Source of the DNA: Catajapyx aquilonaris
Taxonomy: Eukaryota
Reading direction: 5' to 3'
Length of the DNA: 52,230 nt
Assembly: GCA_000934665.2 (NCBI GenBank)
Contig: KZ538712.1
Coordinates: forward strand, 1 to 52,230
The translations under genes were made by a program, and so were the position numbers. Position 1 is the first letter of the stretch; each line of letters opens with the position of its first letter. The notes under the pieces are model-generated. The model was not told the DNA's origin. It saw nothing but the letters and a program-made list of their open reading frames with translations, and did not search any database. Of the stretch, positions 1 through 52,230 are shown piece after piece.

Positions 1-1052
1 TGAGTCCAGAGTTATTGTAATCTTTCCGACTTGTTTCAGATTCAGAGTACCCAAAAGAAATGACTTATCTTCAGACACAGGGGACAATATTTTTTTTTTC
101 CCGTTCCCATGGAATGGCAGAAGAAAGACGTCGAGGTAATTTGCACTGCCATTTCATAGATTGTACTCAGCTCCATTTTTCACTACTCATTACTCGATTT
201 TTCATTACTTGATTGTATGATGATATGCTCACCTGTTGATGCCGCTTGTTTCTAGTAGAGAATATTGTGAACTTGTAGCTGCATAAATATGGACACACAA
301 GTCAGCTTGTGGTTTTAAAAACCTTGGCTCATCCCATATTAACATTTGCAGGATGTCTTCAGGCAGTACATCATGGATGAAATTAAGGTTTGGTTTATTT
401 GGAAGAAGCCAAAGCAACTGTGGCTATCTGGCTGTAAGAAGAAGCAAAGGTGGAAGAAGCAAAGGAATTGAACGTAAATAAGGTTAACAAAAAGCCTCGC
501 CAGTCTGGATCCGTCACATTTGCTAAAGATGTAGACTCAAAGACGATCATGAAGATGAAGGTTAGTTGCCTTTGTGGGTACTGTGCAGTTTTATGGCGTG
601 CTTTGCNNNNNNNNNNNNNNNNNNNNNNNNNNNNNNNGGGCATCACCACCACCACCACCACCAACCCACCCCACCCCACACCCACCCCCCCGCGCAGGTC
701 CTCGTCGGTGTCCGTAACTCTCCGAGGCTGGGTGCAGGTGCACCCGGCCGCCCCACACTTACCCCACTCTCCGATGCGAACAGAGCAAGTATTTTTACGC
801 AAAATTTGGTCGGATTGGGGTGGCATCCGATTACAGGACCCGTGACGTCACGGTCCACAAAGGTGTGGAGTATCATGGAAAAGGCACTGATGTGGTATTA
901 GAGTAGATCCAGATGCGGCGGGTGGGGAGGGGACTCCGGAGTGGGAGTGCTATTGTTCTCCGGCGGCGTGATGAGAAGCAGATGTGCAAGGTCGCACGTG
1001 CAAAAGTCCACATTTAACTGCAGTGTCCTAATATTTCCCTATTACAGGGATA

Positions 1053-1358
1053 ATGCACACACGAATTTTAGCCTTGAGAAAGGACAGTGCTTCTCATGTC
1101 TTTGGCAGTCATGACAGATGCTCCGACTACTTCTGTGGTGGACCTGAAGTACACAAGACAGACTACAATTGGGTGTGTGACTTCGAACTTGCTGGAATTG
1201 GGCTTGACATTCAGGAATCAGTCCACAGGTTGAGTGACCATGCGAAAAGCCTCATTCACAACACATCTAACAGCCCCTGTGAAGTCTTCAACAGCGTTAC
1301 GGCGAAAGTTCTCTACCACCTTCATCCTTGCATATATGCAACCCAAATTACATCATAA
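1053..1358 (+). pseudogene. Mutator-like/Kolobok-type transposase fragment
   Basis: HVFGSHDRCSDYFC and LIHNTSNSPCEVFNS resemble the HxxC and NxxESxN motifs of this transposase class; truncated. Confidence 0.5.
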
Positions 1359-1916
1359 TGTTGCCAAATCGTGCCCGATGCATCATTTATTTAAAAAACT
1401 CCCAGCCACGGGGAGAAACACAGCAAGTTATCTCCTTAGATTGGAGACAGGCCGACAACCCCTAAGACATCGGGTAGGCACTAAGATACCTTAAAGGAAT
1501 CAGGGTGATGGATCACTATAGGCTATCACTATAGGCTACCGAAAAGACGCAGCTCCAAAGTACAATTGGTTAAAACAACTGGACAAGGAACTGCACAGGT
1601 TTGGGCCTTCGGTATATAATTATTTAACTTCGGATGACAATTGGTGTAGAAAAATAGTTAGTCTGAAGCAAACTATGCACGGAGGTCGCAAACGACAACC
1701 AGACTTAAAATCTCAAAAACAAATTTCAGTAAGTTTGGCTTATAATCGGAGAACAGATAAACCTAACAAGAATGTTAGCATGCCTACGATTGGGGGCTCG
1801 GTGTATGCCACTGGGAAAGGAAAATTAATATCAGCCTGGAGGAGAACTGTAGCGTATGCTATCGAGGTAACAAAGGGAACTGGTTTCACTTATGGTGGGA
1901 ATGCAAATTGTTCGAA

Positions 1917-2020
1917 GGAGGGAGAGGGAGACGGAGGGAGAGGGAGACGGAGGGAGAGGCAGACGGAGGGAGAGGCAGACGGAGGGAGAGGCAGACAGAG
2001 GGAGAGGCAGACGGAGGGAG
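1917..2020. repeat. GA-rich minisatellite, ~16-bp unit GAGGGAGAGGCAGACG
   Basis: Degenerate tandem copies seen directly. Confidence 0.9.
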
Positions 2021-2029
2021 GATTTCGCT

Positions 2030-2690
2030 GAATTTGATAGGGACAACTTATGGAGGGCCCGAGCTGTAAAGTTCCCTACCAGCTTGATGATTTGGGGGTG
2101 TATTGGGTACCGATGTCCAGGAAAACTCCCCTTCGTGTCGGGGACCTTCAACGCATTGGCGTACAGTGTTGGTCATAAATCGAGGCAACTGCCAGCGACA
2201 TTTTCCGAAGCGGCAGAAGAAGGAATCGAAGATAAGCACACTTACAAGCCGGGGGAGCAAGATTCCTTCTTCGGAAAATGTCGCTGGCGGTTGCCTCGAT
2301 ATATGACCAATACTGTACCAAGCCATTTTGGAGGAGAAGCTTCTCCCTTCAATCTCTACACTGCATCCAGAAGGAGAGTACATCTTTCAGCAAGATGGAG
2401 CATCCTGCCACACAGCAAAAACCACGAAACGGTGGCTGGAGCAGCACGAAAATTCATGTACTGCCGAACTGGCTCCCCAACAACCCCGATTTAAACCCGA
2501 TCGAAAGTGTATATGGCGGATTATGAAGAAAAGACTGGGGCACCTCCGTCCACGAAACAAGAAGTCATTAAGCTGTATCACAGAGGCTTGGGACAGTATT
2601 TCCCCTGAGAATTGTGTGCAGAGCTGCTGGCGTCCATGCCTTCCCGCATTGAAGCAGCTATTGCTGCGAAGGGTGACGCAACGCGGTTTT
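2030..2690 (+). pseudogene. Tc1/mariner transposase relic (frameshifted)
   Basis: VKFPTSLMIWGCI, YIFQQDGASCHTAK and WLPNNPDLNPIE motifs spread over several frames; internal duplication at ~2160-2220 / 2265-2330. Confidence 0.85.
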
Positions 2691-3630
2691 AAATGGACCT
2701 GTTCCAACTGTTTTGAAGCGGTCCGCGCGGAGCCATACACTTGTGAAACAGTCCGCAAAAGTACGTAAGTGTAAATTTCTCAAATGATAAAACTTTTAAA
2801 TAAAAATATATTCCACTCCAGCTTCTCTATGTTGTTCCATTTACTTTTGCAATAGGGTTGTATTTCTTATGGGCCTGATTATCGGAAAACTTGAACGGCA
2901 ACTAGAAATCAGGGTGTAATCATCTTTAAGCTGATGACATCTCCTTAGGTACATTATACGTTTTTTCCTTGAAGCCCGACGACATGACATTGTAAGGTCA
3001 TTCAACTTTGCAAACAGGGGTCCTGGTGTACGGATGAAATTGAAATGTTCTGTCACATTCAAACACCAGTAGACTCGCCAGATCTAATATCAGTAGCGGA
3101 ACTTCACATCCAAATGCAAGGGGTTGTGGAATGAAATAGAAATAGGGCGGCCTTTTCCAAATCTTTAAAGCCGCTATGTGTACTGTATACACTTTAAGTA
3201 CATAATGTCAATTTCCAGTATTCCTGGAGCAAACTTTGCTGCATTGTGCACGGCAACTGAATAAAACTGTAATACACGGACTTATTCCCGCTGTTTTAGT
3301 ATGTGTGGCAATTCAGTACAAGGATCATTATAAATTTACATGCATATTTGATGTCCTGAAAGTGGCATATTATTTCCTTGTCAGCCTCGGAGCTGCGTTG
3401 CTATACTATGACCTCTGAAAATAAAATCTAATTTACTCATATGTATTAAATTAGTTTCAGCAAGACATCTGGCCACCATAAATTGCAATAAAATTACATT
3501 TTCCAAAATGGTACATATTTTTCCCCCCAAAATATCTTCTACCCCAACAACCAATTCCTTTCAGCCTGAATTAAGCCAAATTGAGCCAAAATCTGTGCGG
3601 TTGTGGCCTATCTGGTAGCGAAGGGGTTAA

Positions 3631-3960
3631 GAACTTGGCTAAGCTGTGCATGTTAAGTGCTTGGTTGCTGAATGATGCCCCCAAGTCAGTGACAAAAATT
3701 GAATTGTTCTTTCCAGTCAGGGGTCACTCCTACATCGATCCTGATTGTGTCTTTGGACTGATTGAGAAGCGGCGAAGGAAAGTAAACATTGCGAAAAGAG
3801 AAGAATATGAAGATATATTTGCATGATTTGGCGCCGTCCGGCGCATTGAACGCGATTGGCCGATTAGTGACTGGAAGGAATGTGCGACCAATGTTTGTAA
3901 GAAACCTGCACAGTTTCACTTTACAATATCGGCATGCAAGCGGATTTTTAAGACCTTCTG
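3631..3960 (+). pseudogene. Sola1-like transposase C-terminal fragment
   Basis: FFPVRGHSYIDPDCVFGLIEK aligns by eye with FFLPGHTRMPCDRDFGAIER of the element at 34363-37684; preceded by a piggyBac-like end GGGG-TTAA at 3623-3630. Confidence 0.65.
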
Positions 3961-4472
3961 TTCATTTAACGTTGGGATTGGGGTGGCATAGCCTGCCCTG
4001 CCCTACAACGTCACAGGCCATTGCCGCTGTTGTGACAAAAAAAAAATCCCTTTTTTGGGGGTCAAATAACCATTACATTCTAGTGAATATTGATAATGGC
4101 TACGATTATTTCACACCCACTTTACTGCCCGCTACCAGGCCGCGACTAACAAAAAATGCTCTCGTGAAATGTTGACTTACATGGCACTTAGGTCCCTCGC
4201 CTAAAATCCTGTACTAAGGATAATTTTCTATTTCTATACGATATGGCCGCCGGTCGCATTAGTTGGAGATAATACAAGAGATGGCTCTCTCTCGCCGATA
4301 CCACCTATACCGTGTGCCTTCAAATATTATGTTCACGGAATTCATGACTTTAGTATACAACTGACTTCAACTCCTCTGCAGTCAGCTCAGGATCACCTTC
4401 AGACTCATCAACCTCAATGTCGCCACGAGCGTCCCACGAGCCATCATCACGAGGGAAATATCTCCCCAGCCG

Positions 4473-4806
4473 AGACGGAGTGGCGCCGCGGTAACGCGTG
4501 TGCCCACGGAAGTTAAGGTCCCGGGTTCAATCCCCACCCGGGGTTCCCACCTTCTTTCGTGCAGAGTGAGACCGTCTCTGGCTTCGTTTCGGGTGGCGAT
4601 CCTTTCACATATGCCACCCGGGGGAGTTCACAAAACGGCACATCAACGACATTGCACACGCACTTTGCACATCCCCTCCTACCTACCCTTGGAACACACT
4701 AAATACTATCTTAGTATACCGGTTCCACCCAAATGGTGGTATTTCCACCCCCCTAAAGGAAATGTAACTCCCAATGGGGTAATGCAAAAAAAAAAAAAAA
4801 AAAAAA
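4473..4806 (+). mobile_element. tRNA-derived SINE, full length
   Basis: Pol III A box (TGGCGCCGCGG) and B box (GGTTCAATCC); poly(A) tail ~4786-4807; target-site duplication ATCTCCCCAGCCG at 4460-4472 and 4807-4819. Confidence 0.9.
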
Positions 4807-5023
4807 ATCTCCCCAGCCGGGCTGTGTCCAGTTCCGCAAAGGGCTCGGAAGAATTCAGTATGTCCTGATTAATCCTAGTGACCTTCCTACCTTTTTGTTT
4901 CTGGTCAGGTTTGTTCTGAGCTTGAAGAAAGAGGCTGTTTAAGAAGACTCTAAGACTGAACCATGGCTACGGGAGGTGCAGGAAACGACCCTGGACACAA
5001 CTTGAATTCATGACTGGTGAACT

Positions 5024-5999: not shown

Positions 6000-6566
6000 T
6001 TCCTGGACTATACGATCAACTGCTGGCTGACAATGTTTTGTTTTTGGACTTGCGCGAAGGGCAAAATTCAACCTAGCTAGGTTGCCTCAAACCAGGGATG
6101 CTGCTCAGCTGCATACCATGCGTACATATATCACCAAGTTCAGGCGTGGCTAGGCATGAACAAGGACACGTTGAAGTGGGGCTAGGTAAGTACTCCGCAG
6201 GCACTCTTCCCGAATAAAGCCAAGTAGGACCCAGCTCCACATTCGATCCTTCACACCATCTCTTACGCTTGCAAGAAAGGCTGTTCTAAAGCAGGTGGGT
6301 GTCGAAAAGCAGGAATGAACTGCACTACCATTTGCAAACATTGCGATGGGCAGACCTGCGAAAATAATACACCGCCACTAGTCCTGACCTTTGGCGCGGG
6401 GGAAGAGGACGCCCTTGAAGAACCCATCGACATGCTGGGTGAAAACATAGACGAAGACGGTGATATTCAATTGGTGGACATTCTAAACACTGGCACAACA
6501 GTGGACAAAGCCATTGAAATTCCCGAAATCAATCGCGCGGGCCCTTCTAAGCGCCAAACATTGTAA
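6000..6566 (+). pseudogene. Academ-like transposon protein C-terminus with Cys-rich finger
   Basis: LPQTRDAAQLH motif followed by CRKAGMNCTTICKHCDGQTCEN; frameshifted. Confidence 0.45.
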
Positions 6567-9367: not shown

Positions 9368-9508
9368 TTGCACTTGCACTTTGCACATCCCCTCCTACTT
9401 CCCTAATTGTGAATGAACTTAGTAATGTAATTACACACACGGTTCACACATGGTGGTATTCCACCCCCCCCCCCCGACAAGCCAGACAGGCTATCAAGGG
9501 GTAGGATT
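9368..9508 (+). mobile_element. Truncated 3' part of the SINE family seen at 4473
   Basis: Shares GCACTTTGCACATCCCCTCCTAC and ATGGTGGTATT(T)CCACCCCCC with the 4650-4755 region. Confidence 0.7.
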
Positions 9509-9518: not shown

Positions 9519-10644
9519 TCTACTTAACCTTAATTAGGCCTCTAATGTCAACACAATGTCACTAATGCGTCACTTTTTAGAAGCTGGCACACAGGAAGCT
9601 GGCAGCCACTCACCCCCAGTTCCTGGAAGGCTGCACCCAGCTAAGAAGGACAAGTATGCGACTCTGCTCTATGCAGAGATTATGAGCTCCGAGGAGGCAG
9701 GTGAAGAAGGAAGGCCTCCAAGGAAAATGTTTCTGACCAAAAAAATTAATTGGCGGAATGAAAAGGCGGAGAGAATGCTGGCGAAATTGGACAATTTTCA
9801 TTATCAAAATTGCACAACAAAAAGAGGGAGGGCACTCTTGGTAGAAAGGAGAACTGGGGAGGGGGTGTCCGTTCGGGATGTACCCAATAATGTGAACATC
9901 AAGTGGGCAATAAAAAAAAGCTTGAAAAACATTCGGATGATTTATGACAATGTCACTTTCCCTTGATCCATAATCCTAATTGATCATTATTTTTTTAACA
10001 AAGTTCTAATATTATCAATCAAGTTTGCAGCAGTGTACAATACATGCATTCTCATAGGCCTATCAAGTCGATTAATTTAGAATTTAAAAAACTACCAGTA
10101 AAGATTTGTGAATTTATTTCCGACTTATCAGGAGAGGAGGCCATATCCCCTGATCATCTCAAATGAAAATAGCTTCTTGGTGGCTGGCAACTGATGTCTC
10201 TGGTCATCTCTCAGCAGACAGCAGGTAATAAGTAACAAATCACATTGATATTGAAGATAATTTTGAAAAAGATTTGAACCATTTTTAAAGCAATTTAAAC
10301 GTGCCAATAAAGGCGCAAAATGAGGCATTTCAGCGCGAAAGGTCACATTTCGAGTACCTATATATGGTGCCAGTAAAGGCGCAAAAGGGGACATTATTTT
10401 CAGGTACCTATACCTGGCCAACCTAAAGGAGTAACAGGATAGCTATCACGTACCTGTATGTGGTGGCAGTAAAGGCGTAAGAGGACACCTTTCATATGCC
10501 CCTACATGGTCCCATTAAAGGTGTAACAGGCCGCCTTTCATGTTACTATGCGTACCTAGACGGATCTGTACATGGCTGGTAAAGGTGTGATAGGTCTTAC
10601 TTCATGTGCCTTGACTAAGTAATATAGCCATGGAAAGGTACCTT
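9519..10644 (+). mobile_element. CACTA/EnSpm 3' region, copy 1 (accessory ORF 9556-9966 plus subterminal repeats)
   Basis: Near-duplicate of 11073-12121; MSSEE...INWR...LD ORF; repeated AAAGG(C/T)G motifs. Confidence 0.7.
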
Positions 10645-11072
10645 AGCATAATTAACTAATGTTGCTAAAAAAATGCTCCAGTCTATCTGCAACCCAAGTG
10701 TATGGGAATTTAGCTGTGCTCACGGTCAGAAAATAGGAATTATTCACGCTCATTACACAGTCAGTTGTTGAAAATACATGTAGCATGTGAGTTTCAATGT
10801 GGAAGCACTGTGTGTGTGCAATTCCAAGAAATGTAAGACATAAATGGAAATGGAACACTCCACAAATGTACCCGGTAGCAGAAAAACAGGATTTTATAAT
10901 AACACCTTGAACTAACTTGGCGATCGTTGAGAAAGTAGTTTTTTCTTTTCTTTTTGATAACGAGAAATTGTAAGAATTTTGTAAGAAATATAACGCATAA
11001 AATTTGTAATACTGTATATACAGTTTTCATTTAATTGTTTCATATTCCAATATTAACTAGTGCTCTCTATAT

Positions 11073-12323
11073 TCTACTTCACCTTAATTAGGCCTCTAAT
11101 GTCAACACAATGCCACTAATGTGTCACTTTTTAGAAGCTGGCCCGCCGGAAGCTGGCAGCCACCCATCCCCAGTTCCTGGAAGGGTGCAGTCCAGCGAAG
11201 AAGGCCAAGTACGAATCCCTGCTCCAACAGGAATTGATGAGCTCCGAGGAGAGTACCGAGGAGGAAGGGGAAGAAGGAAGGCCGCCTAAAAAAATATTTC
11301 CGACGAAAAAAATTGATTGGAGCCATGAGAGGGCAGGGAGGATGCTCATGAAGCTGGACACCTTCCACTACAACCATTGCACGACAAAAAGAGGGAGGGC
11401 ACTTTTAATAGAAAGACGGACTGGGGAGGATGTATCAGTCCGGGCTGTCCCCAGGAATGTCGCCATGTGGACAATAAAAGAAGCTTGAAAAACATTAGGA
11501 TGATATATGACAATGTCACTTTCCCTTGATCCATATTCCTCATTGATCATTATTTTTTTAACAAAGCTCTAATATTATAAATTAAGTTTAGCAGTGTACA
11601 GTACATGCATTCTCACATCAAGTAGATTAATTTAGAATTTAAAAAACTACCAGTAAAGATCTGTGAATTTATTTCCGACTTCTCAGGAGGCCATTCCCCT
11701 GATCATCTCAAATTAAAATAGCTTATTGGTGGCTGACAACTATGTCTGGTCTTCTCTCAGCAGATCGCGGGTAATAAGTAACAAATCACCATTGATATTG
11801 AAAATAATTATGAAAAAGATTGGAACCATTTTAAAGCAATTTAAACGTGCCAAATAAAGACGCAAAAGGGGACATTTCATGTACCTATACATGGCCAACC
11901 TAAAGGAGTAACAGGATAGCTATCACGTACCTGTATGTGGTGGCAGTAAAGGCGTAAGAGGACACCTTTCATATGCCCCTACATGGTCCCATTAAAGGTG
12001 TAACAGGCCGCCTTTCACGTTACTATGCGTACCTAGACGGAACTGTACGCGGCTGGTAAAGGTGTGATAGGCCATACTTCATGTGCCTTGACTAAGTAAT
12101 ATAGCCATGGAAAGGTACCTTTCCGTGGGAAATGAAAGGTGTTATAGCAAGCCTGCATGTACCATAATGTACTCGAGAAAGGTACTTAAAGCTGATATAT
12201 CCAAATTGTAAAGTTGATGTAAACGTGCCTGTCCATGGCTATAATGTACCTCAAATACTGTATACCTATTACGTGCCTTTCTTGGGAAGGATAGGCTTAG
12301 AAAGGCATACATTTTTCCTAGTG
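11073..12323 (+). mobile_element. CACTA/EnSpm 3' end, copy 2, with terminal inverted repeat
   Basis: Ends ATTTTTCCTAGTG (reverse complement CACTAGGAAAAAT) at 12323; ORF 11234-11488; subterminal repeats. Confidence 0.8.
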
Positions 12324-13924
12324 GTGGTAATCAGAATACAAAAAGGTGGGACCAGGACTTGTGCAAACTGACGCGTCCACACAGGGTCATATGAAGAATG
12401 GTGATACTGGGCCTCCTACTTCAGCTACATTATCACTGGTAGCATCCACATCTGCTTCATCAACGTCATCACTGGTGGCGTCTGCGTCGGCAAGAGCTAA
12501 TAACTGAGAGCCTCCGAGTCCCCTATCCCTGCCATAGAGCTCGGTTCCCCATCCTCTCCGCGGAACTGGCGACTCCCCAGACGGGCACGGCCGAAGGAAG
12601 GCGGCTCGGTTAACACGGGAAGGAATATGCCCGTCTGTCGTCATCAGGGCACAGTGCCCCACCTCCAACACGGCGATTGAGGCACCCCCCCCCCCCCTCC
12701 TTGGAATAAGGCCCTGCCCACTCGGCCAGTGGCCAATCAGAGACCAGTTCCTCCANNNNNNNNNNNNNNNNNNNNNNNNNNNNNNNNNNNNNNNNNNNNN
12801 NNNNNNNNNNNNNNNNNNNNNNNNNNNNNGGGGGGGGGGGGGGGGGGGATTGACAGGGACACAGGGTGCTAAGTGGACTGAGACCTCGGGGCGCTCTATT
12901 TTGGGTGACCTACCCACTTTACAGTATCTATACCACCGTGCTGCTTAATCCGGGGAGGAATTTTCATTGACGTCACTAGAAGATTGGGCTACGTCGCCTT
13001 GGGACAGAGGACAGGCAAACGACCCCAGTTGTGAATCACCTGATGTGAGTCAGCAAACCATCCAGCCATCCACTTCTTCCCAGTGGCCTTCCGAGGAAGG
13101 CAGCGATGGAGCACAAGGAAGAAGTAGGACTTTTAGAAAGTGTGGCTAACATGTCGGCAAAACATTTGCGCGAAAGCGAAATCAGGAGCAGGTGCCACTT
13201 AGCATTCATCAAGTCGGGAAGCTTCAGAAGTGCCATATTAGAAATGTACAACCGACTGCTGCAAATTGTAGAGGAGGTGAAAGACATGGCCCAATTGCGC
13301 AATAAGTGGTACCTTCGGGAGAATGGACTGGCTGGGTCCCTGAACGTCATCAGGAAGGTGGTCGAGGAAGCAGGGATAGACACCAGCAGTGGGACACCCG
13401 CAGCGAAGGAGATGACTGCCTTGCTGCAGGTGTATGGCCGGGCCATATTTGAGTGGCACGCTGGAGAACATATGAAGGAAACAAATTCAGCAGGTGCAAG
13501 TGATGGTGGCGACAGCTCCGCTGAACTGGCTGAAGATCGTGACAGGATGCGACAATTTCTTGTCATTGGCGGCGGTAAGCATTTTTTGTGTCATACAGTT
13601 GCACATAGTGTTATTGCATTCCAAAAGTAGGCCTACGTAGCGTTTGGCCGCAATTTAAAACAAATCCCGCAAAACTCAAAATTTTATACTCACAGTAAAA
13701 TTGGTGGCAGCTCTTTGTGACAGCAACCTACAATCATTAGGCGTTTTTCAACATGTGAACAGTTTCTGTTGATAAATTTATCCCACCGTGACATTAAATA
13801 TGCCTTGTCCGTGCACCTCCTGATAGCGCCTAGATAGCCTTTCGATTTTTTCTTCTTCTGTACAACCCTCGACCCACTGGGTAAGTCCAGGTGTTCCAAA
13901 AATGCATAACACCCTTAAATTTTC

Positions 13925-14312
13925 TTATTTATCGGAGATTTGGTACACGAAATTTCACCGACTACCTTAGCGTATTGCGTGATTATCGGGTGTCTGCTGG
14001 GACCGACAGGTCACGACTGGGGTCAAGGTGAAAAGTGGCACGTAGGAATAAACATGTCACTATTATCTCGCTACATATCTCGGTATAACCAGTAGTTCTA
14101 TCACAATAGTTTATATGCCAATCGAATCCAAGTGGTTCCGGGATTAATAAAACGTGCATTAAAGCACAAATTTAAAATAGGCAAAATATTTGACTTCTCA
14201 AATATTTTTCATCTTGACCCTAATCGTGACCCGTTTGTCCCGGACGCCCGAGAATCGCGAATTACGCTAGCGTAGTTGGCGAAATCTCATGTACCAAATT
14301 TCAGACAAATCA
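13925..14312. repeat. Imperfect ~110-bp inverted repeat (DNA-transposon subterminal region or MITE)
   Basis: ATTTGGTACACGAAATTTCACC...GGGTCAAGGTGAAAA pairs with TTTTCATCTTGACCC...AAATCTCATGTACCAAAT. Confidence 0.65.
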
Positions 14313-37684: not shown

Positions 37685-38092
37685 AATTGTATCCGCAATA
37701 AACATGGAAAGAGCATACCAGATTTTATATTCCAAGTGTAACCTGTGAGACAAATATGAATTTGTGGGTGAAGGGTCATACATAGGTCATGACCCAATGT
37801 GACACACAATATTTGGAAAGACGCTCCCCTCACCTCTTTTCTTATAATATGATGTTACCAAATTTCAATTAATTTTCTTAATTACTAAACCATTTTTTTT
37901 GTACAAAACAAATAATCTGTGTGGTTGCATTTGGGTTAATAGAGTGTGGGTTGCTTCAACTGGAACCTTTGGAAAATCAATTATCGTTTGATCTCTGGCT
38001 TCCTCTTCTACATTCATAATATTATATGGTGTTTAGTGTTGTAAACCGTATCATTACACAGAGTAGCCTACATAATATTTCTTCGTCGCTAG

Positions 38093-42112: not shown

Positions 42113-42728
42113 TGTCACCGGTAGAACCTGTCTCCAAAATATAGCGGCACTAATGATACTTTATGAGAGGACAAGCTCCCCCTTTTTAGCCATTTGGCAG
42201 AGAAGTAAGTAAACAAAACAATTTAACCTGGCGCCAAGAAGGCGGGAGAACCATATTTGGTCCTCAGGAGGAGTTTGACTCGCGTAAGCTGATAGCACCC
42301 AGTGTCAGTTCCGCCTCCACAAGGTTGGAGTCCGCTATATAAAGGCTCCACCCAACCTACTCGGGGTTCGTTCCTGAGGGAGTCATCCAGACGGAAGGAG
42401 GGTCCTGAGGTGTCACAAGCCTCCTCTTATTCGCCCAGCCCGGGGCGGCCATCGCAGGAAGAGGGAGGAGCAGACCCCCTGTGTGGAAGACCGGCCTTCT
42501 GTACCGGCTTACCAGCAGAGATGACCCGGCCTGTTGTCAATAAGGTTAGAACTTAACTGGGGTAGCTTAAATGATCATGCTAGAAGGGCTGATTCCGATG
42601 ACCATGTTAGAAGTGAATAAACCATGAAAAAGACCCAGCTGTCCACTTATTCCAAGGTGTAACCCGGGAGACCCAAAAGAACTATACAAGAGGTCGGAGG
42701 TCAATGACCCCTGACCTTACTTGTGACA
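42113..42728 (+). mobile_element. LTR family A, copy 1 (616 bp)
   Basis: TGTCAC...GTGACA termini; TATATAAA ~42336; AATAAA ~42616; about 4 substitutions by eye versus 48615-49230. Confidence 0.95.
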
Positions 42729-43020
42729 ACTGTCGCGTACGTATTGATCTCGAAATATACGGGAAACATTAGTGTGTCTGACGGTTTTCAACGTAAGGAT
42801 TTTGGAAGGAAGAGGGTCCTGATAATTATGCCCTTGGGAACTATAGCAATGTCCAAAAACCAAAGTGTGCCCCTAAAGTGAGAATTCTTATTATGTTGAC
42901 TAACCCCTGTCCAGAAATACCCGCCTTTACTGAGGATGGCGTTGCTATATAGGGAGGGTGGATGCCCCTCTCGTGTCACTCTTAGTGAGACCTTGGCCAC
43001 CTACACCTCTAACTAGTACC

Positions 43021-43476
43021 ATGGATTGATGTGCCACACCCTCTCGCGCTTCGGCCGGAGAGGAAGATGCCGCTTCCAGCGGTTGGGACACCCCTTCATT
43101 GGGGCGACCTGAACTCAGCCCCCCAGCAGCGGTGTCCAGCGGCGCCACCAGCTCCTTCGAGCCCTGGAGCGATCGTCGTGAGGATGGAGCACGGGGAGAC
43201 AGTGCCGTGGACTTTTCCTCCACCGGGCCATCCCCGCCGATGGCGCAGAGGATTTCGGCGGCCGAGGGTTTTGAACACATCCGACGGGCCCCGATGACGA
43301 ACTACGGCCCAGCTCCACCCCTGCGAATCTACGGTATGTCGCAAGTACACGTGGTATACGGTCCCAACACATGCGTCACTATCCATATCCGAGTGGCCGA
43401 AGACCAAGTGGTTGTGATCTTACCGGAAGGCTGGCGCCAAGAGGTGCAGGCTATGCAACCTCATAGGTTCTGGTAG
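43021..43476 (+). pseudogene. Retroelement accessory ORF, copy 1 (family B; TGA at codon 3)
   Basis: ATG GAT TGA is in frame with ORF 43099-43476; C-terminal domain homologous to the ORFs at 48113 and 51353. Confidence 0.75.
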
Positions 43477-43682
43477 TAACTGCCACAAGAAAGTTAGTGT
43501 AGTGTAGTGGACAATAGGAAGTGATGTGCTCACCAGTGATGTCTCTAGGACTGTACCTTTTATTTTGTCCGTGAATATATCCGTTGTTTCTCACAAGGGC
43601 ATATGTGTGTATGTGTACGGAATCATACTGACCGTATGATATTGAAGCCGGATTGCCCAGCTTCAATTTAAGGGGGAGCGTT

Positions 43683-44313
43683 TGTCGCCCTTCAGACGCG
43701 CGCTACACATAAACGGAAACATTAGCGGGGATTGATTGTTGACAACCACTTAGGTCTTAGCAAATAGCCATTAGGCTCCATCGAAGTCACGACGCGGCCC
43801 TGTGGTGTAAAAGTAGAGTAAACAATACGCGAGAGGCCGACGTCAGCTTAGGCGCGTGACCATATTTGGTCCATCAGGAAGTATGATTCCGGTAAACCGA
43901 TAGCTCCCATTAGCAACTCTGACACATTGAGGCCAGCCGGCCTAATATAAGCAGTAAGAGCCGCGGCGACCAGAGCAGATCCCAAGGGAGGAGCACCCAA
44001 GCAGAAGCCCCTTCTGGCCACCACTCCTCAGCTGGAGCAGATCCCGAGGGAGGTGACCACCCCGTCTACGCCCAAGACAGCCATCGGCACGGGACACCTG
44101 GACCGCCATGTCGGCTCTCACCCCCACTGCTACACAGGTCAGAGCTGCTAATGAGGTAGCGTAATTTGTGACCCTCTAACCTGTCGTTGTGCGAAGGAAA
44201 TAAACCTTGAAAATGACCCTACCTGTCTTTGACTTCCTTGGGTAACCCGAGAGACGCCAAAAGAACCTAACTTGAGGCCGGGGTCGTGGTGACCCCTTGA
44301 CCTCAGGTTGACA
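43683..44313 (+). mobile_element. 3' LTR of related family B (~631 bp)
   Basis: Follows PPT AAGGGGGAG; TGTC...GACA termini; shares CCATATTTGGTCC and AATAAACC..GTAACCCG.GAGAC.CCAAAAGAAC blocks with LTR A. Confidence 0.85.
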
Positions 44314-45281
44314 CGCAGACCAAAAGGCAGAAACTGTGGCCCGGACAATTATCAATGGAGTTTTCTCTAGACATGGTATACCCCGGAAAATGCTAAGTGA
44401 CCGAGGTACCAACTTCCTGTCTAAACTAATGAAATCTATTTGCGCCATGTTATCCGGAAGGAGACGGGTTAACCGAACGCGCTAACCAGACTTTAATATC
44501 CTTGCTATCCCATTATGTAGCAGAAAACCAACTAGACTGGGATGATTATCTGGACTTGGCCTTGTTGGCTTATAGATCGGCAGTGCATGCCTCTACCAAT
44601 GAGACGCCCTTCTTCATGCTCTATGGGCGGGAAATAGAAGTTCCCATTGATGAGTTTATGACCCCCCGACGCCTTAATTGGTCGGTATTGTCCGACTATA
44701 AGGAGGAGTTAGCCTTGCGTATGCAAAGGATATTCTCAGGCGCCAGAGAAAGTTTGGAAAATGCTGGGCGAAAATATAAACGGGCGTATGACAAAAAGGC
44801 CCGTCAACGTGTCTTCAAGGTGGGAGACAAAGTGCTCCTTTTCACGCCCCAGGTTAAGATAAAGGGGATTAAAAGGAAGCTGGCAAAACTTTGGTCTGGG
44901 CCTTATCGCATTGAGCGCCAGACTAGCCCAGTAAACTTTGTTATACATGAAGTGATGGGTCGCCGTCGTCAACACGTGCATGTTAATAGATTAAAGCAAT
45001 TTTATTCCCGAGATGTATTCCCTCCACAAAGGGACGTCCCCTCCCCTGAGGGAGACACACTTCCTCCCGAGGAGGAAGGGCTCGGGGAAGATGTTGAGGA
45101 AAACTGTTTTGACCCTAATGAGACCATTACGTTTGGCCCATTAAGACCGAGAGATGAGGGTAGAGAAGAAGTGAATGGGTCCCCTGAGAGAGACGCCACT
45201 CCTCCCGAATCCCCCATAGATGTATTTCCATTGCGACGAAGCGATCGGGTGCGACAGGCACCTTCTCGCTACAGTCCTTAA
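44314..45281 (+). pseudogene. pol: Gypsy/errantivirus integrase (pol 3' end), 5'-truncated, with a short frameshifting deletion near 44450
   Basis: RHGIPRKMLSDRGTNF, GDGLTERANQTL, AYRSAVHASTNETPFFMLYGR and KLAKLWSGPY motifs. Confidence 0.92.
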
Positions 45282-45292
45282 GGAAAACTAAG

Positions 45293-45313
45293 TACTAATA
45301 GTTGTCCTTTCAG
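45293..45313 (+). promoter_or_regulatory. Probable env splice acceptor
   Basis: Branch point TACTAAT, pyrimidine tract and CAG|G just before ATG 45320. Confidence 0.65.
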
Positions 45314-45319
45314 GTTACC

Positions 45320-47383
45320 ATGATACGAGTGTTTGTGACCTTGCTGATGTGCCAGATGAGTAGCAGCTTCGGACTGGAAGCACCAGATGGAGTGAGCCCA
45401 CCGGAAAACCTTCCCCCAGGACTTTTATTTATAAAAAAGAAAGAGCTAGCTATTTCAGGAAACACTTGGAAAATAGTGGTCAATTATAATTTAGCGGAAT
45501 TGCACCGGGAGCTGAAAGCTATAGCTGGGGAGTTGTCGGCGTTTCGTCATTATGTGACAACAGCACATGATTCTTGTGCTTCTAATTTTAAGGAAACCAT
45601 GGCTTTACATGGCTCCCCTTTGAGGGAGGCGGATATAATTTATGAACAAGTATTTTGCAATACCACCACAATAGAATTAAATTATTTGCAGCAAGAAATG
45701 GGCGTATTACTGAACGAAGTAGGAGTGCTTAATGGCTTAATTGTGGAAACTCAAGGTAACCGGAAGAGACGGGGCTTGATTAATTTGGCCGGTAATGTTT
45801 TAAAATTTCTCTTCGGAGTGAGTGTTGAGCAAGATGTAATTGATCTACAAGAGCAATTGCAACAGGCCTCAAGAAAGACCTCCAAATTGGCCCATTTGGC
45901 CCAATTGCAGACAACCGTGCTCAATAAATTGCATCAAAAAGTTGAGAGTAATGCGAAAAGTATTTCTGACTTATCGGACACTATCAATTCATTAAATCAA
46001 CAATTGGTTAAGTATACGGATATGATTGAGCACCGGTTGTTAAATACCGAATTATATGATACGGCCCTGATGATCATAAATGCAGGAGCCCGGCTGTTAC
46101 ATGCTTCCTTGGCTCAAGCACGGCACGCTGTAATTGAGTTAATACAGGTGTTTCAGCAGCTAAATGTTGGCCGTTTGCACCCCTCGTTAATATCTCCCAG
46201 AACGTTGCTGGGCACACTGCATTATGTGTCGATTATTCTGTCTCCCGACTTACACTTTCTAACCCCCTTGAGTGCCAAGAATGTGCTCACATTGTACAAA
46301 TGGTGTCATACTTACCTATTACCCTCCCAAGACACCATTTCCATAATAATCGTAATGCCCTTATTGTCAGATGGAAGTACCTTTGATTTGTACAAAGTTA
46401 TTCCGTGGCCCTCCTATGTTAATGAAAATGCTTCAGCCATTATAATCCCCGAACAACCATATTTGGCGGTTTCGAAGGACCAACAAGCCTTTATGGAACT
46501 GGAAGAAGCAGACATTACTAATTGCCAAGCCCAGGACGAATTGACCTTATGTGATTTTGAAAGACCTATTTACACGAGGCCCAGTTCCTCGTGTACTTAT
46601 GCCATATTGACTGGGTTCACGATGGAAACGGACCAGCGCAATAGAGTCCTAATTCAACATATTTTACCTCGATTTGAGTTACTGAATTCAGAAGGATTGT
46701 GGGCTTATAATGTGCCTAAGCATTTGCTGTTAAAAATTCAGTGTCGTAATTCGAAAAATGAAACCCTTTTGGACTTAGTGAATACGGGAGTGTTCTCATT
46801 GCTCCCAGGTTGTAGGGCCATTCACACTGATTTCCGATTAGAAGGTAACTTGCATGGTAGTTCTGGTAAGGAATTACACCTGAATGGACATATAGTGGTC
46901 CCAGCGGTCACCTCTATGTTTAGCGGAGTAGAGTTGCAAGTGTTGAATAAGGTGATGCACACCAATATGTTGTTGGAGGAAACTAAGAATAATTTGTGGT
47001 TCACGAGAATCAATCGAGTAGAAAAAGGAATTCCTATGGATGATATCATGTTACGCATGAACGAGGCTAGCACCGATGTATTAAATCAGAGTCATGACTA
47101 TGTAAATAAGGGAGAATTGTGGTTACAACCGACCTCCTATATATCTTTGTTGTTGCTGGTCGGAACTGTGTTAGTAATTGCTATTGTTTATGCATTACGG
47201 AAGAAAATTAATTATTGTGATTTCTTTTGTAATGGCCTGGCCGGAGAGCCAGAACCTGCTGTGACATATGTATCCACTTGTAAACAGGAAATGGAAGAGA
47301 TTGTATTGTCTAGTCTTCCGGATGGTATTGTCCCCTCACAGGTGGGTGGTACACATGAAGGTGGGAGTAGGCCTGCTCCATAA
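45320..47383 (+). CDS. env: Errantivirus-type envelope glycoprotein (baculovirus F-like class I fusion protein), intact ORF
   Basis: Signal peptide; furin site RKRR (45761-45772) followed by fusion peptide GLINLAGNVLKFLFG; heptad repeat; Cys-rich region; C-terminal TM helix. Confidence 0.93.
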   Translation: MIRVFVTLLMCQMSSSFGLEAPDGVSPPENLPPGLLFIKKKELAISGNTWKIVVNYNLAELHRELKAIAGELSAFRHYVTTAHDSCASNFKETMALHGSPLREADIIYEQVFCNTTTIELNYLQQEMGVLLNEVGVLNGLIVETQGNRKRRGLINLAGNVLKFLFGVSVEQDVIDLQEQLQQASRKTSKLAHLAQLQTTVLNKLHQKVESNAKSISDLSDTINSLNQQLVKYTDMIEHRLLNTELYDTALMIINAGARLLHASLAQARHAVIELIQVFQQLNVGRLHPSLISPRTLLGTLHYVSIILSPDLHFLTPLSAKNVLTLYKWCHTYLLPSQDTISIIIVMPLLSDGSTFDLYKVIPWPSYVNENASAIIIPEQPYLAVSKDQQAFMELEEADITNCQAQDELTLCDFERPIYTRPSSSCTYAILTGFTMETDQRNRVLIQHILPRFELLNSEGLWAYNVPKHLLLKIQCRNSKNETLLDLVNTGVFSLLPGCRAIHTDFRLEGNLHGSSGKELHLNGHIVVPAVTSMFSGVELQVLNKVMHTNMLLEETKNNLWFTRINRVEKGIPMDDIMLRMNEASTDVLNQSHDYVNKGELWLQPTSYISLLLLVGTVLVIAIVYALRKKINYCDFFCNGLAGEPEPAVTYVSTCKQEMEEIVLSSLPDGIVPSQVGGTHEGGSRPAP

Positions 47384-47923
47384 CCCTCATGATGTTCCCC
47401 CTACTGAATTCAAGTAATAGTGACTAATAGACAGTCTCTTACGTTTTCTTACCCGGGATGTTAGCAATTGTTTCATGTTGTTGGTAAACTCTTGTGTGGA
47501 AGTGCTGAGAATAATTACCTGTGTTGAGACCTTAATTTTGTGTTATAAAAAATAAACCTGTTCGTAGGGAGTATGGATACTCCGTCTTAGACGCCGTAAC
47601 TCCACTCACAGGAGAATAACCATAAGAAGAAGTAGGCATAACAATTACGTTGGTGGATCCCCCCTGTCTGACCCAAAATAACCCAAGCTGTGCTTCAACA
47701 AAACTGTGATCTACATGCCCCTCCAGGGATCAGTAGAGTCAACTGGAAGTGGCAGTAGGACCATGAGACTTCCCTAAGTGTTGAGTGAAAAGTGGAAGAT
47801 GTTATTGTTGTCAAGATTGCCTGTACCTTATATAAGAAGCCTTCTTTCCCCTTTGCCCTATCACACCCGTCTGAACCCTTGAAGAAGCAGCTTCCAGAGT
47901 CAGTTCTTGCCGTCACTACCGCT

Positions 47924-48424
47924 ATGGACTTGTCTACCACTTCCTGCGAAGGGTGGGAATACTCCCCCGCCTCTCCAGAAGACCCTGAACAACGCGGTGA
48001 GATGGCAGAGGGTTGGCAAACCCCAACTCGGGAGGAGATGGCCGCTCGCTTGGAGGCCGACCTTCGGTTCAACCTGCCCCCGGCCCCGTCGGCTCGCCGA
48101 GTGTCCCCATAGATGCGGACCTCCACACCCGAACGCCGCCAAGGGACTCCGGAGATGTGGACTGCTACCCCTGAACACCGGCAGACCCGGCCACCACCTC
48201 GCTGGTCACCGGTCCAGTGGGAACATCATCAACCATGGCAAGGGACCGTCCAGACCCGGATCTCCACCCCGCCAATCGTCATCCATGGGACGGCCAGGGT
48301 TCATGTGGTGCGATGTCCCCAGGAAGACATCTCTATCAACATCCACCGAGCCTCTGACCAAGTGGTCATCGTGTTGCCGGAGGATTGGAGGCAAGATGTG
48401 CAAGTAGTGTCCCTACCTGTGTAA
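47924..48424 (+). CDS. Retroelement accessory ORF, copy 2 (family A; one in-frame TAG at 48110-48112)
   Basis: MDLSTTSCEGW start; ORFs 47792-48112 and 48113-48424 are contiguous and in frame; conserved C-terminal domain. Confidence 0.75.
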
Positions 48425-48551
48425 AACCCCCCTTTCACGTTGAGTAGGAAGGTGTAGTTGAAGAGTATGGTCCAGTTAATCGGAATCAGTCATGATGTGA
48501 GTAGAAAATGGGTTCGTCCCAGTCGTTGTAAGCTACGTGAGTCATATTGCC

Positions 48552-48614
48552 TGTCACACTGTCCGTATGACATTAAAGCCGGGTTGCACCCAGCTTTAAT
48601 TCAAGGGGAAGCGC
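48552..48614 (+). promoter_or_regulatory. Double hairpin plus polypurine tract
   Basis: Conserved at 43622-43680 and 52172-52230; PPT AAGGGGAAG directly before the LTR. Confidence 0.8.
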
Positions 48615-49230
48615 TGTCACCGGTAGAACTTGTCTCCAAAATATAGCGACACTAATGATACTTTATGAGAGGAAAAGCTCCCCCTTTTTAGCCATTTGGC
48701 AGAGAAGTAAGTAAACAAAACAATTTAACCTGGCGCCAAGAAGGCGGGAGAACCATATTTGGTCCTCAGGAGGAGTTTGACTCGCGTAAGCTGATAGCAC
48801 CCAGTGTCAGTTCCGCCTCCACAAGGTTGGAGTCCGCTATATAAAGGCTCCACCCAACCTACTCGGGGTTCGTTCCTGAGGGAGTCATCCAGACGGAAGG
48901 AGGGTCCTGAGGTGTCACAAGCCTCCTCTTATTCGCCCAGCCCGGGGCGGCCATCGCAGGAAGAGGGAGGAGCAGACCCCCTGTGTGGAAGACCGGCCTT
49001 CTGTACCGGCTTACCAGCAGAGATGACCCGGCCTGTTGTCAATAAGGTTAGAACTTAACTGGGGTAGCTTAAATGATCATGCTAGAAGGGCTGATTCCGA
49101 TGACCATGTTAGAAGTGAATAAACCATGAAAAAGACCGAGCTGTCCACTTATTCCAAGGTGTAACCCGGGAGACCCAAAAGAACTATACAAGAGGTCGGA
49201 GGTCAATGACCCCTGACCTTACTTGTGACA
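48615..49230 (+). mobile_element. LTR family A, copy 2 (3' LTR)
   Basis: Direct repeat of 42113-42728, preceded by the PPT. Confidence 0.95.
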
Positions 49231-49611
49231 ACTATCGATCGCGCCCCCCGAGCAAAAACAAGAACAGTGTGTTAATTGGTGGCCTAGCATGGGCAGGCAC
49301 CTCTTGGGCCAGTGCCTCACATGTCTGGGCTGGGGACAGGCTAGTTGTGAAGAGGTGTCGAGGCAGTCCTGTCGGAATGGGAGCACAAACAGAGCCGCAA
49401 ACGTGCCTCAAACGCACATTCTCCCTATGTCAGCCATTGCACAGCGCTCAGATTTCGGCCCTCATAGAACAGTGCGCTTCTGGCGGCCAGACCTTACGTC
49501 ACACTCACACCCCGCTAGAGGGAAAACGGCCGCAGTTTTGCCACCTTACCCTGTTTATGCATCTTGCAGTGTGTTAACGTAGGCTACCTATATACAGTAG
49601 ATTGACTGGCG

Positions 49612-49890
49612 ACACTGGCCAAATATTGGCATAACGGATGAGTCAATATATAGGTCCAATGTCGCCAGCAGATATTGGACCGACATGAAGCAGTGCACAT
49701 TTTGCCTCGCCAATCCCAATATCGGTACAATATTGGGTGACGATATTAGGCCGATATTGTCACCCAATATTGGGCCAACTGAGGCAAAAGGTTAACACTT
49801 TTAGGTTGGTCCAATATCGTCACCCAATATTGTACCGATATTGGCTCAGCCGTTCTACCTATATTGGGCCGATATGTCTGTGCTACCTGG
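49612..49890. mobile_element. MITE end with repeated CCAATAT/ATATTGG palindromic units
   Basis: Many AATATTGG and CCGATAT units; ends TGTGCTACCTGGG. Confidence 0.6.
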
Positions 49891-49935
49891 GTTGCTGGTT
49901 ATATCGCTTTCCGAGCAAGAAAAGTAGATCAAACT

Positions 49936-51069
49936 TCTGTCCTATTACCGGCTGATATGCACTTCTTAACTCCTTTGACGGAAAGAAATATATTAACACT
50001 GTACAAGTGGTGTCATACTTATATAGGGCCTTCCCAAGAATCGATGATAATAATAATTACAGTGCCTTTGCAACGAGAAGGCAACGCTTTTGACTTGTAT
50101 AAAGTGGTCCCCTGGCCTTTCTTGGTACAGGACAAATTGTCGGCTGTTGTACGAAACATAAAGCCTTTTCTAGCGGTCTCTCGAGACCAGCAAGCGTTTA
50201 TTGAATTGGAGGAAACTGATATGTTAGATTGCAAGTCAGATAATGACTTTACTGTATGTCATTTCCAAAAACCAGAGTGGACAAGACCAAGCACTTCTTG
50301 TGCCTATTCTGTTTTGACAGGATTCGGCCTGACCAGTCAATCATGTCAAAAAACTATTTCCGTACATACGACTCCTCTATTTGAATTAATAGACGCTGAA
50401 AAGGGTTCATGGGCTTACAACACACCTAACACATTGCAGCTAAACATACAATGTCGATTCTCCGGAAATAGCACACATTTAACTATTACAGGCATAGGTA
50501 CTTTTGTTTTGCCTAAAGGCTGTACAGCATACCACACAGGTTTTCGTATTAAAAGTACCGTACATGGAGGTGTACGAGGGAATTTGTTAATGGGAGGACA
50601 TATCGTAATACCTCCAATAGGATCCTTGTGGGAAGGAGAGGAAATGAGAGTTTTGAGAAATTTATGGAAAGTGAATTCACCTAATAATAGTTTACACATG
50701 AGTAAAGTATATGAGTTGCTAAATGAAAAGGAAGGCATGTCTTTGGAAAACTTAATAAGAGATTTGAATGAAGCAAACGACATGTTAATGTTTGATCCGG
50801 ATCTTGAGAATGATACAAACCTTTGGGTGCACCCTAGTAGTTATGTGTCCATGTTTATATTTTTTGGGATTTTGGCTCTGGTGGGAGTTGTTTATTTTAT
50901 GGTAAGAAGACACAGAAATATAAAAGAATGTAATATGGATCCTAGTTACCACAGAGAGCCATCTGTCTCGTATGTAACCACGCAGGAGCAGACAAGAGAG
51001 GAGATTGTGGTGTCTGCTATTCCTGGTAATGGGGGAAGCTTCCAGACTGTGAACCCAGGTGAAAATTAA
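49936..51069 (+). pseudogene. env: 5'-truncated env of a third related family (C)
   Basis: HFLTPL..LTLYKWCHTY..FDLYKVVPWP..LAVSRDQQAFIELEE aligns with the 45320 env; TM helix present. Confidence 0.92.
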
Positions 51070-51484
51070 GGTGACAGGCCTGCACCAATGTTTTCAGTTC
51101 GGTCTCCACAGACTGAGAGTTGTCATGGTTATCGAGATTGTAAGTGGGTAATTAGTGCCAATGTATGGCAAGTAAACAGGGCTTTTGGATTGTTTCAAAG
51201 GGGAAGGAGAGCTGTACACAAGCAAACCATTTTGGGGGAAAGTCAATTAGTTTGCCCAAGGGGCTAGTGCCATTTGACATTGACCTATGAACATGGAGAT
51301 TCACTCACTCCATATTGGGCAATGTTGTTGAAACGTAGTAACGCTGACTAGGATGTTCACACCCAATATTGGAAGTGAACGAAGTCATAAAAGGACCCTC
51401 CTTGTTCCGAAAAGGAGTCAGTTGCACCCAAGTCGTCAGAGACAACAGCACTTAGTGTACCTCCGGACACCTTACAACAGAAGG

Positions 51485-51874
51485 ATGGATATGTCTTCAA
51501 CCTCTAGTGGGTGGTCATTTGTGGCCCCAAACCCGCCAAAGAACGAGAGGCCCGGCGCCGCAAACCAAGCATCCTCATCGCGCGCTTCGGCGGTGCTGAG
51601 TGATATGAGCGAGGACCGACTTTCTATCGGCCCCTTGCCTCCTGCTGCCCATCGCTTTACACCGGTCGATTGGGAAGAAGTTAGAAGAGAAGGTGAGCGT
51701 AATCTTCGGAATGCTCCACCGCCCCTGGGGGTCAAAGGCCTGCGGAGAGTGGACGTTATCCGAAGATACTGTCCCATTGTGACGCTGACTGTCATCGGTG
51801 GAGCCGAGCAGATGGTGGTCACGATGCCCAGGGATTGGGATCAAGAACTTCAAGTAGTCCCCAGCGACTATTAA
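51485..51874 (+). CDS. Retroelement accessory ORF, copy 3 (family C; uninterrupted, 129 aa)
   Basis: MDMSSTSSGW start; conserved C-terminal domain; CATAAAAG and TCAGTT upstream. Confidence 0.78.
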   Translation: MDMSSTSSGWSFVAPNPPKNERPGAANQASSSRASAVLSDMSEDRLSIGPLPPAAHRFTPVDWEEVRREGERNLRNAPPPLGVKGLRRVDVIRRYCPIVTLTVIGGAEQMVVTMPRDWDQELQVVPSDY

Positions 51875-52230
51875 GTCACCCGGACCCAAAGTGCAATAGT
51901 GTCCCGTATAGTGGAATAGTTTATATAGAAGTGCAAAAGCGAGCACCTAGTAAAGGTGCAAAGAAAGTGGTTCTGTTCGACACATCATTGTGCAACTTTC
52001 CCACCACCCCATTAGTAACACGTGCAATTGTGCAGCTCGCCCTTAAAACAGTGTTTTCCTTTTTTTTTGCCGTCTACAGACGTTTTATTGTATCATAAGC
52101 CCCTGTAACTATTGCTTAAAAGATTGCCCAAACTTGTTTATTGCCATGTTGTAGTACTTCCCATTGCGTGGATCATACTGGCCGTATGAACTTGAACCCG
52201 TTAGCACCGGCTTCAAGTAAAGGGGGGGGG

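Follow-up and report, generated by a model that had tools for sequence, protein, structure and literature searches.

Relics of diverse transposable elements share one orientation across 52 kb of the Catajapyx aquilonaris genome, a candidate uni-strand piRNA cluster

RESULTS

Transposable element relics along the window

We analyzed 52,230 nucleotides of DNA from Catajapyx aquilonaris (contig KZ538712.1, positions 1 to 52,230; below, the window), in which the recognizable coding relics of transposable elements (TEs) are all read on the forward (plus) strand. An original prediction had placed here a uni-strand cluster of PIWI-interacting RNAs (piRNAs) resembling the Drosophila locus flamenco. 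Over its left 40 kb, the window is pieced together from DNA-transposon fragments of 0.2 to 1.7 kb, one near-intact DNA transposon with terminal inverted repeats (TIRs), and unclassified plus-strand open reading frames (ORFs). Gypsy/errantivirus-type material with env genes occupies the right 10 kb (42113-51871). By a tally of these parts, DNA-transposon relics and relics of elements with long terminal repeats (LTRs) take up roughly 9 kb each. All features described below lie on the plus strand unless stated otherwise.

Two relics of Tc1/mariner transposases were found. The first (1871-2765) is broken up in two places, by a 16-nt microsatellite (1917-2020) and by a palindromic insert (2161-2318) that resembles a miniature inverted-repeat transposable element (MITE). 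Its segment 2307-2765 matches residues 107 to 207 of the Sleeping Beauty SB100X catalytic domain (5cr4_A; E = 1.8e-7) as well as DDE_3 (E = 0.016). The second (24838-25717) includes both a helix-turn-helix part (HTH_Tnp_Tc3_2 at 24838-25143; E = 2e-12) and a DDE part (DDE_3 at 25292-25717; E = 3.9e-14). Just downstream of it, a 361-nt unit is repeated 1.9 times in tandem (26079-26765; 92% matches). Transib (RAG1-like) transposases are likewise represented twice. The C-terminal third of one lies at 15632-16279 and matches residues 335 to 481 of the Helicoverpa Transib (6pqn_A; E = 1.3e-37) and also RAG1L (6b40_A; E = 5.8e-6). The other (23097-23501) is in direct orientation to it, with 42% amino acid identity over 135 residues (E = 1.6e-26), and comes from a moderately repeated family (word depth of 250 to 570 in the bin 22672-23338).

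Several pieces abut one another. A MULE transposase relic with a SWIM finger (17931-18646) is supported by PF20700 Mutator (E = 3.9e-11; ORF 17931-18113) and by a SWIM match below the Pfam cutoff (E = 0.0049). At 18646 it joins a P-element/THAP9-like transposase relic (18645-20302; TNP-like_RNaseH_N, E = 6.1e-19, and TNP-like_GBD, E = 3.9e-11, in ORF 18645-19247). Near 20300-20360 the P relic passes into the C-terminal dimerization part of a hAT transposase (20360-20599; PF05699, E = 2.1e-6, above the cutoff). The extension of the P relic to 20302 is a reading of motifs by eye, and 19598-20302 gave no PDB or Atlas match. A palindromic MITE of very high copy number sits within this relic at 20131-20261 (word depth of about 1e4 in the bin 20004-20670). 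A hAT-like reading of 20818-21636, also made by eye, was dropped as unsupported (no Pfam match, no PDB match, and no longer homologue). A weaker item, the C-terminal part of a second P-element-like transposase, lies at 38784-39245 (6p5a_B P transposase; E = 0.002). Its stretch 38971-39013 recurs 11 kb downstream as a 43-nt copy (49892-49934; 98% identity) fused in frame to a truncated env gene described below. This copy looks like templated filler DNA from break repair or like a tiny second fragment of that P family.

The near-intact TIR element spans 34358-37689. Its 37-nt TIRs (34358-34394 and 37653-37689) are 92% complementary, and its transposase frame of 445 plus 189 amino acids is broken by a single stop. 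The 445-amino-acid ORF (35050-36384) has 185 homologues, the best at E = 1.8e-122 and about 50% identity; those with names are DUF7869 (PF25273) proteins of insects, chiefly beetles, to which the element is related. It may be the element that the original prediction called Sola. A literature search on DUF7869 found no paper, and this transposase group appears to be poorly documented or to lack a name.

The right part of the window contains a Gypsy/errantivirus-type LTR element of 7.1 kb (42113-49237), with LTRs of 623 nt (42113-42735 and 48615-49237) that are 99.2% identical. Between them lie a gag-like ORF (43030-43473), integrase remains (44312-45278; rve at 44312-44482, E = 9.5e-4, and Integrase_p58_C at 44433-45278, E = 3.1e-8), and an open env ORF of 693 amino acids (45302-47380; Baculo_F, E = 6.7e-40). 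Reverse transcriptase (RVT_1) and retroviral protease (RVP) are absent from the Pfam matches between the 5' LTR and the integrase. Target-site duplications were not clearly readable for either the LTR element or the TIR element. The env protein has a single database relative at an E value of ≤1e-20, with 24% identity, and for this reason we assign it to a divergent errantivirus-like env lineage. A second, 5'-truncated Baculo_F-type env relic follows at 49936-51087 (E = 5e-17; ORF 49783-51066). It shares 41% amino acid identity with the first over 392 residues, in direct orientation, and we assign it to a different Gypsy lineage. In a self-tblastn comparison of all ORFs of ≥50 amino acids from both strands, the gag-like ORF had direct relatives at 48266-48409 and 51530-51859, and a gag-like relic akin to it was placed at 51332-51871 (E = 5e-10 and E = 2.6e-9, direct). 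With a weak Gypsy/Ty3 integrase SH3 relic at 29326-29571 (SH3_Tf2-1; E = 7e-4, below the cutoff), co-oriented Gypsy-type relics number up to four, include two env genes, and make up about half of the annotated TE bases.

Recognizable relics lie on the plus strand only

For the main Pfam scan, we used all 393 stop-to-stop ORFs of ≥55 amino acids (182 on the plus strand and 211 on the minus strand) at an E value of ≤1e-3. Matches were found in 12 plus-strand ORFs, 10 of them above the curated cutoff (Mutator, TNP-like RNaseH_N and GBD, Dimer_Tnp_hAT, HTH_Tnp_Tc3_2, DDE_3, Integrase_p58_C, Baculo_F twice, GATA, and RING); SH3_Tf2-1 and rve fell below it. The minus strand gave a match in one ORF, to DUF5763 (E = 7e-4), which at 19.4 bits lies under its cutoff of 26.3 and has no passing stretch; we regard this match as noise. 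A second scan, relaxed to E ≤ 0.02 and to a minimum of 40 amino acids, covered 284 of 708 ORFs (chunks 1 and 2 of 5). On the plus strand it added the DDE_3 match at 2307-2765, the SWIM match at 18245-18646, a zf-C2H2 match, and one noise match, and on the minus strand it gave two noise matches only (UNC45-central and zf-piccolo).

After duplicated items were removed, 11 strong independent relics remained, all on the plus strand: two Tc1, two Transib, one MULE, one P, and one hAT relic, the DUF7869-type TIR element, the LTR/env element, the second env, and the gag-like piece. Four weaker items (the second P relic, the Gypsy SH3 piece, and ORFs with GATA and RING fingers) are also on the plus strand. 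Recognizable TE coding relics on the minus strand number zero, and such a split has a probability of 1e-3 for 11 of 11 and of 6e-5 for 15 of 15. The co-orientation of the TE relics is real, and a strong strand bias of TE fragments is one of the features by which uni-strand clusters are recognized.

The central observation of the original prediction, that every TE relic lies on the plus strand and no credible TE protein on the minus strand, is thereby borne out (11 strong and 4 weaker relics against none), and the annotation-free checks below agree with it. Its inventory was too generous: about 30 relics had been claimed, and we verified approximately 15 (about 11 strong plus 4 weaker). Six to seven superfamilies (Tc1, Transib, MULE, P, hAT, Gypsy, and the DUF7869 TIR element) were confirmed where at least 10 had been named. 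CACTA, piggyBac, Harbinger, and Kolobok gave no match and stand as unverified rather than refuted, Pfam being weak for several of them.

The asymmetry is also visible when annotation is set aside. The longest ORF lies on the plus strand in 22 of the 26 full 2-kb bins (P = 5e-4). ORFs of ≥150 amino acids number 20 on the plus strand and 6 on the minus strand, and those of ≥200 amino acids number 9 and 1. Stop trinucleotides are commoner on the plus strand (2431) than on the minus strand (2313) despite the greater number of long ORFs there. AT skew is positive in 21 of 26 bins. The paralogous pairs that self-tblastn detected within the window (the Transib pair, the env pair, the three gag-like pieces, a tandem duplication, and the LTRs) are all direct, as is the 43-nt copy of the P-like relic, and inverted matches are limited to short TIRs and palindromes. 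The ORF 28271-28747 (159 amino acids), the longest on the minus strand in one of the three full 2-kb bins where that strand leads, had 0 homologues among 1.84 billion representative proteins. The bias extends to both ends of the 52-kb window.

A strand split of this kind could have arisen by chance or through a functionless local history, in an ordinary TE graveyard whose co-orientation reflects the sampling of many windows together with local duplications that copied orientation. The window was selected from a very large scan, in which rare patterns are expected, and the strongly supported relics are only 11. Independence is lacking for the tandem copies at 9519-12121, for the tandem of 361-nt units at 26079-26765, and for the 43-nt copy. 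However, duplicates had already been dropped before the 11 to 15 relics were counted, the probability of 15 of 15 (6e-5) is accompanied by that of the independent ORF-asymmetry test (5e-4), and a single duplication cannot account for relics of differing superfamilies and ages. We are aware of no neutral mechanism by which unrelated TEs would come to share an orientation. On balance, we consider an origin by chance or local history unlikely. Capture by a Helitron, Pack-MULE, or Polinton was rejected as the cause of co-orientation, the Pfam scans having found no Rep/helicase, polymerase, or other carrier gene.

The window is genomic DNA

Co-orientation would also follow if the window were a misassembly or an in silico concatenation of sense-oriented TE consensus sequences. 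Some of its features fit such an artifact. GC content, about 45% overall, swings between 0.395 and 0.524 in successive 2-kb bins. The window contains 108 N characters, in runs at 607-637 and 12756-12829 and singly at 9509, 22177, and 24040, and those at 12756-12829 and 22177 adjoin homopolymers. In addition, every run that contains the sequence derives from one sample. The read data point the other way. Four putative DNA runs, all from that sample, contain 0.80 to 0.84 of the sampled words of 14001-24000. Contigs from three DNA runs span 30 of 30 bins of 14001-34000 at low and even depth, and only 0.01 of the placed contig sequence continues into unlike sequence. Unitigs with zero differences, up to 1.4 to 1.6 kb long, link adjacent relics in the same interval. 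A fifth run carrying the same species label contains next to none of the sampled words, and its placed contigs reach 4 of 30 bins, in high-copy repeats only.

The structure of the relics argues against concatenation as well. A library of TE consensus sequences would consist of clean full-length entries set end to end and unsupported by reads. The window instead holds frameshifted fragments, MITE-like palindromes and one microsatellite nested within relics, and an LTR element with both LTRs present. Because contigs cover 14001-34000 evenly and MITEs are nested in relics, we conclude that the window is genomic DNA and not a concatenated TE library; an artifact is highly improbable.

Word depth is mostly 15 to 100 across 14001-34000 in the three runs, with lower values in one of them, and we took this as about the single-copy level. 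It peaks sharply near 20131-20261, where it reaches about 1e4 at the MITE, and again at 24006-24672 and 30676-32009. Most relics of the 14- to 34-kb interval are thus low in copy number and, for that reason, old. Differences between the window and the contigs in 14001-34000 were mildly asymmetric in all three runs (21 to 23 A>G against 13 to 15 T>C), an excess that is not significant alone. Long G and C homopolymer runs stand beside N runs or single Ns at 12756-12849 and 22149-22199, and a C-rich, His/Pro-rich stretch follows the N run at 607-637. These spots may reflect sequencing or consensus trouble or may be masked stretches.

Gene content and unclassified repeats

No host gene was recognized in the window by the Pfam ORF scans, a tRNA search (none found), or an Rfam search (zero families). 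The original prediction of a locus with no host gene holds loosely: tRNAs, Rfam families, and minus-strand domains are lacking, but ORFs with a GATA finger (31023-31196) and a RING finger (33841-34155) lie on the plus strand and may be of TE or host origin. With TE domains spread along its length, the window is TE-rich and without recognized protein-coding host genes, as is typical of the clusters considered below.

The GATA-type zinc-finger ORF (PF00320; E = 1.5e-8) lies in a high-copy repeat (30676-32009; word depth of 845 to 4584). Variant copies of this repeat omit 118 to 119 nt beginning exactly at 31023. A GATA finger carried by a TE family would be unusual, and the ORF is a candidate for either TE or host sequence. 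The generic RING-finger ORF (zf-C3HC4_3; E = 4e-7) has weak matches to the MGRN1 and IAP RING domains and may be a gene fragment or TE-borne. A C2H2-type ORF (30096-30662), noted as a lead, had Atlas feature scores of 0.90 and 0.89 to C2H2 clusters and of 0.81 and 0.78 to MULE/ZSWIM clusters, with no Pfam match in the main scan; it may represent the N-terminal portion of a transposase of MULE type.

An unclassified unit of about 1.55 kb with 46-nt subrepeats is duplicated in tandem at 9519-12121. The copies match over 833 nt at 84% and over 279 nt at 95%, and both contain a plus-strand ORF (9538-9963 and 11135-11485; 59% amino acid identity over 116 residues). This ORF had no Pfam or PDB match and may encode an unclassified TE protein; 9538-9963 and 13049-13627 also gave no PDB or Atlas match. 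A weakly supported candidate for the 3' end of a retroposon lies at 4652-4807 and ends in a tail of 22 A residues (4786-4807), and a 36-nt stretch of it recurs directly at 9368-9403. T runs longer than 10 are found nowhere in the window, against this A22 on the plus strand. A match of 6228-6563 to human immunodeficiency virus gp120 (E = 7e-5) was rejected as a cysteine-rich artifact in which no stretch passes.

DISCUSSION

The window is part of a long, gene-free TE graveyard in which relics of diverse superfamilies and mixed ages share one orientation, and the minus strand is devoid of recognizable TE coding sequence. The bias is common to old insertions and to young ones, namely, the LTR element with its 99.2% identical LTRs and the TIR element with a single stop in its ORF. 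Because young and old insertions agree in orientation, the filter that sorted them has acted for long. The likelihoods also favor a strong filter, as 15 of 15 has a probability of 0.21 under a 90% bias compared with 3e-5 under 50%. The process known to orient TEs in this way is transcription through the region. We suggest that the filter most likely was transcription of the minus strand into a single long precursor processed into piRNAs, that is, a uni-strand cluster, and we put the probability of this reading at roughly 50%.

Under this model, TEs would land in either orientation. Insertions with their sense strand on the plus strand would yield antisense RNA within the minus-strand precursor and would be retained, since antisense RNA silences the family. 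Insertions in the sense of the precursor would give no protection or would disturb it and would be lost. In time, this would leave truncated remains of many families, mostly at low copy number and uniformly antisense to the precursor, overlaid by a few young insertions. Such a history presumes that the minus strand is transcribed, that piRNAs are produced from it, and that the bias stems from selection rather than from insertion preference.

A minus-strand piRNA precursor seems the best explanation because TE richness and strand bias are what nominate flamenco-like clusters in Drosophila. Excerpts of two studies use TE enrichment plus strand bias as the criterion for nominating flamenco-like unistrand clusters from sequence and report that small-RNA sequencing bore out such predictions in Drosophila (PMC10643416, PMC11400887). 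For FlaHMM, one of them gives true- and false-positive rates of 0.80 and 0.011, respectively (PMC11400887). According to the excerpted text of a third paper, uni-strand clusters mainly carry antisense transposon insertions, and somatic piRNA defense against env-carrying gypsy elements is reported across insects (PMC13172572). We counted the env-carrying Gypsy relics that fill the right 10 kb, a class controlled by flamenco-type clusters, in favor of a uni-strand cluster.

Several observations weigh against this interpretation. In Drosophila flamenco-like clusters, Gypsy alone drives the strand bias, as stated in the excerpted part of the source (PMC10643416), whereas the bias here also spans at least five DNA-transposon superfamilies, unlike the Drosophila model case. 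Most relics in 14001-34000 are low in copy number at ≥95% identity, so that any piRNAs they gave rise to would find few matching elements today. Neither a promoter nor a boundary of the cluster is visible within the 52-kb window. The three covering DNA runs represent one sample, probably the source of the assembly, and the long-range order of the window is without independent support. Finally, the motif AATAAA is not depleted on the minus strand (29 observed versus 18 expected from base composition; 39 versus 27 on the plus strand), contrary to a crude prediction from a long, unterminated minus-strand transcript.

The same geometry, with all TE sense strands opposite a putative minus-strand transcript, would be produced by the giant intron, untranslated region, or long noncoding RNA body of a minus-strand host unit from which sense TEs were purged for their polyadenylation or splice signals, with no role for piRNAs. 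No exon would be required inside 52 kb, and in vertebrates, TEs within introns are well known to be biased toward the antisense orientation. Nevertheless, that bias is moderate and is weakest for DNA transposons. At 65% antisense, the probability of 15 of 15 would be 1.6e-3, and at 55% it would be 1.3e-4. There is no minus-strand exon or Pfam domain among the 211 minus-strand ORFs of the main scan, and the undepleted AATAAA tells against a host transcript as it does against a piRNA precursor. We regard a host intron or transcript body as quite unlikely.

Beyond the uni-strand piRNA cluster, a wider reading is conceivable, although we hold it only tentatively. The window could be a source of small RNAs from one strand, in an animal lineage that has been little sampled, with an orientation filter acting on TEs of all classes, at least five cut-and-paste DNA-transposon superfamilies among them. 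If so, it would represent an archive of general scope, kept on one strand and policing DNA transposons as well, perhaps in a germline rather than a somatic niche.

If the uni-strand cluster were confirmed, its type would already be known, and what would stand out is that cut-and-paste transposons share in the orientation bias. A signature made up of TE richness and strand bias would then find clusters in a distant, little-studied animal too, and such a cluster could keep a complete orientation bias for DNA transposons, unlike the Drosophila loci. The window would also offer a concrete locus in its host species for studying the capture of new invaders, such as the young env-carrying LTR element or the DUF7869-type transposon. 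If it were not confirmed, the window would be a striking but ordinary TE graveyard.

Among known systems, host introns with antisense TEs resemble the window in that transcription through the region filters insertion orientation. The filtering there is partial and weakest for DNA transposons, whereas here it is complete over at least 11 to 15 relics, with no exon in sight.

The flamenco and flamenco-like clusters of Drosophila are described, in the excerpted text, as TE-rich and gene-poor, with fragments overwhelmingly in one orientation (PMC10643416, PMC11400887). They share with the window env-carrying Gypsy elements of errantivirus type, including a recent insertion, and old fragments mixed with young copies. 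It is at the level of DNA that the original prediction of a flamenco-like cluster is supported: the window is TE-rich and gene-poor, has an extreme strand bias, holds many fragmentary families, and mixes old with young, all of which is consistent with such a cluster; for flamenco itself, expression and piRNAs have been demonstrated. That prediction had also called the window dominated by DNA transposons, unlike flamenco. This is correct by count but not by bases, of which LTR and DNA-transposon relics have about equal shares. Since about half of the annotated TE bases belong to env-bearing Gypsy elements, the locus is more flamenco-like than had been proposed. It departs from the Drosophila clusters in that Tc1, Transib, MULE, P, hAT, and DUF7869-type elements are co-oriented, where the bias in the Drosophila source concerns Gypsy only (PMC10643416, as excerpted). 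The Drosophila clusters, as given there, measure 227 to 1085 kb and have a defined promoter, compared with the 52 kb viewed here, in which no end is reached. Moreover, the host is not a Drosophila species, and the env protein has one distant relative, at 24% identity.

A further comparison is offered by the uni-strand "core" clusters of mosquitoes, which contain antisense endogenous viral elements and gypsy/BEL relics (PMC13172572; bioRxiv 10.1101/2022.08.22.504762; excerpts). They were defined by small-RNA data, whereas the window is known from its DNA sequence. No nonretroviral viral relic was seen in the window, and its share of DNA transposons is much higher than theirs. The resemblance is that mosquito clusters, too, store unrelated invaders antisense to the precursor, as is proposed for the window, and that they do so outside Drosophila.

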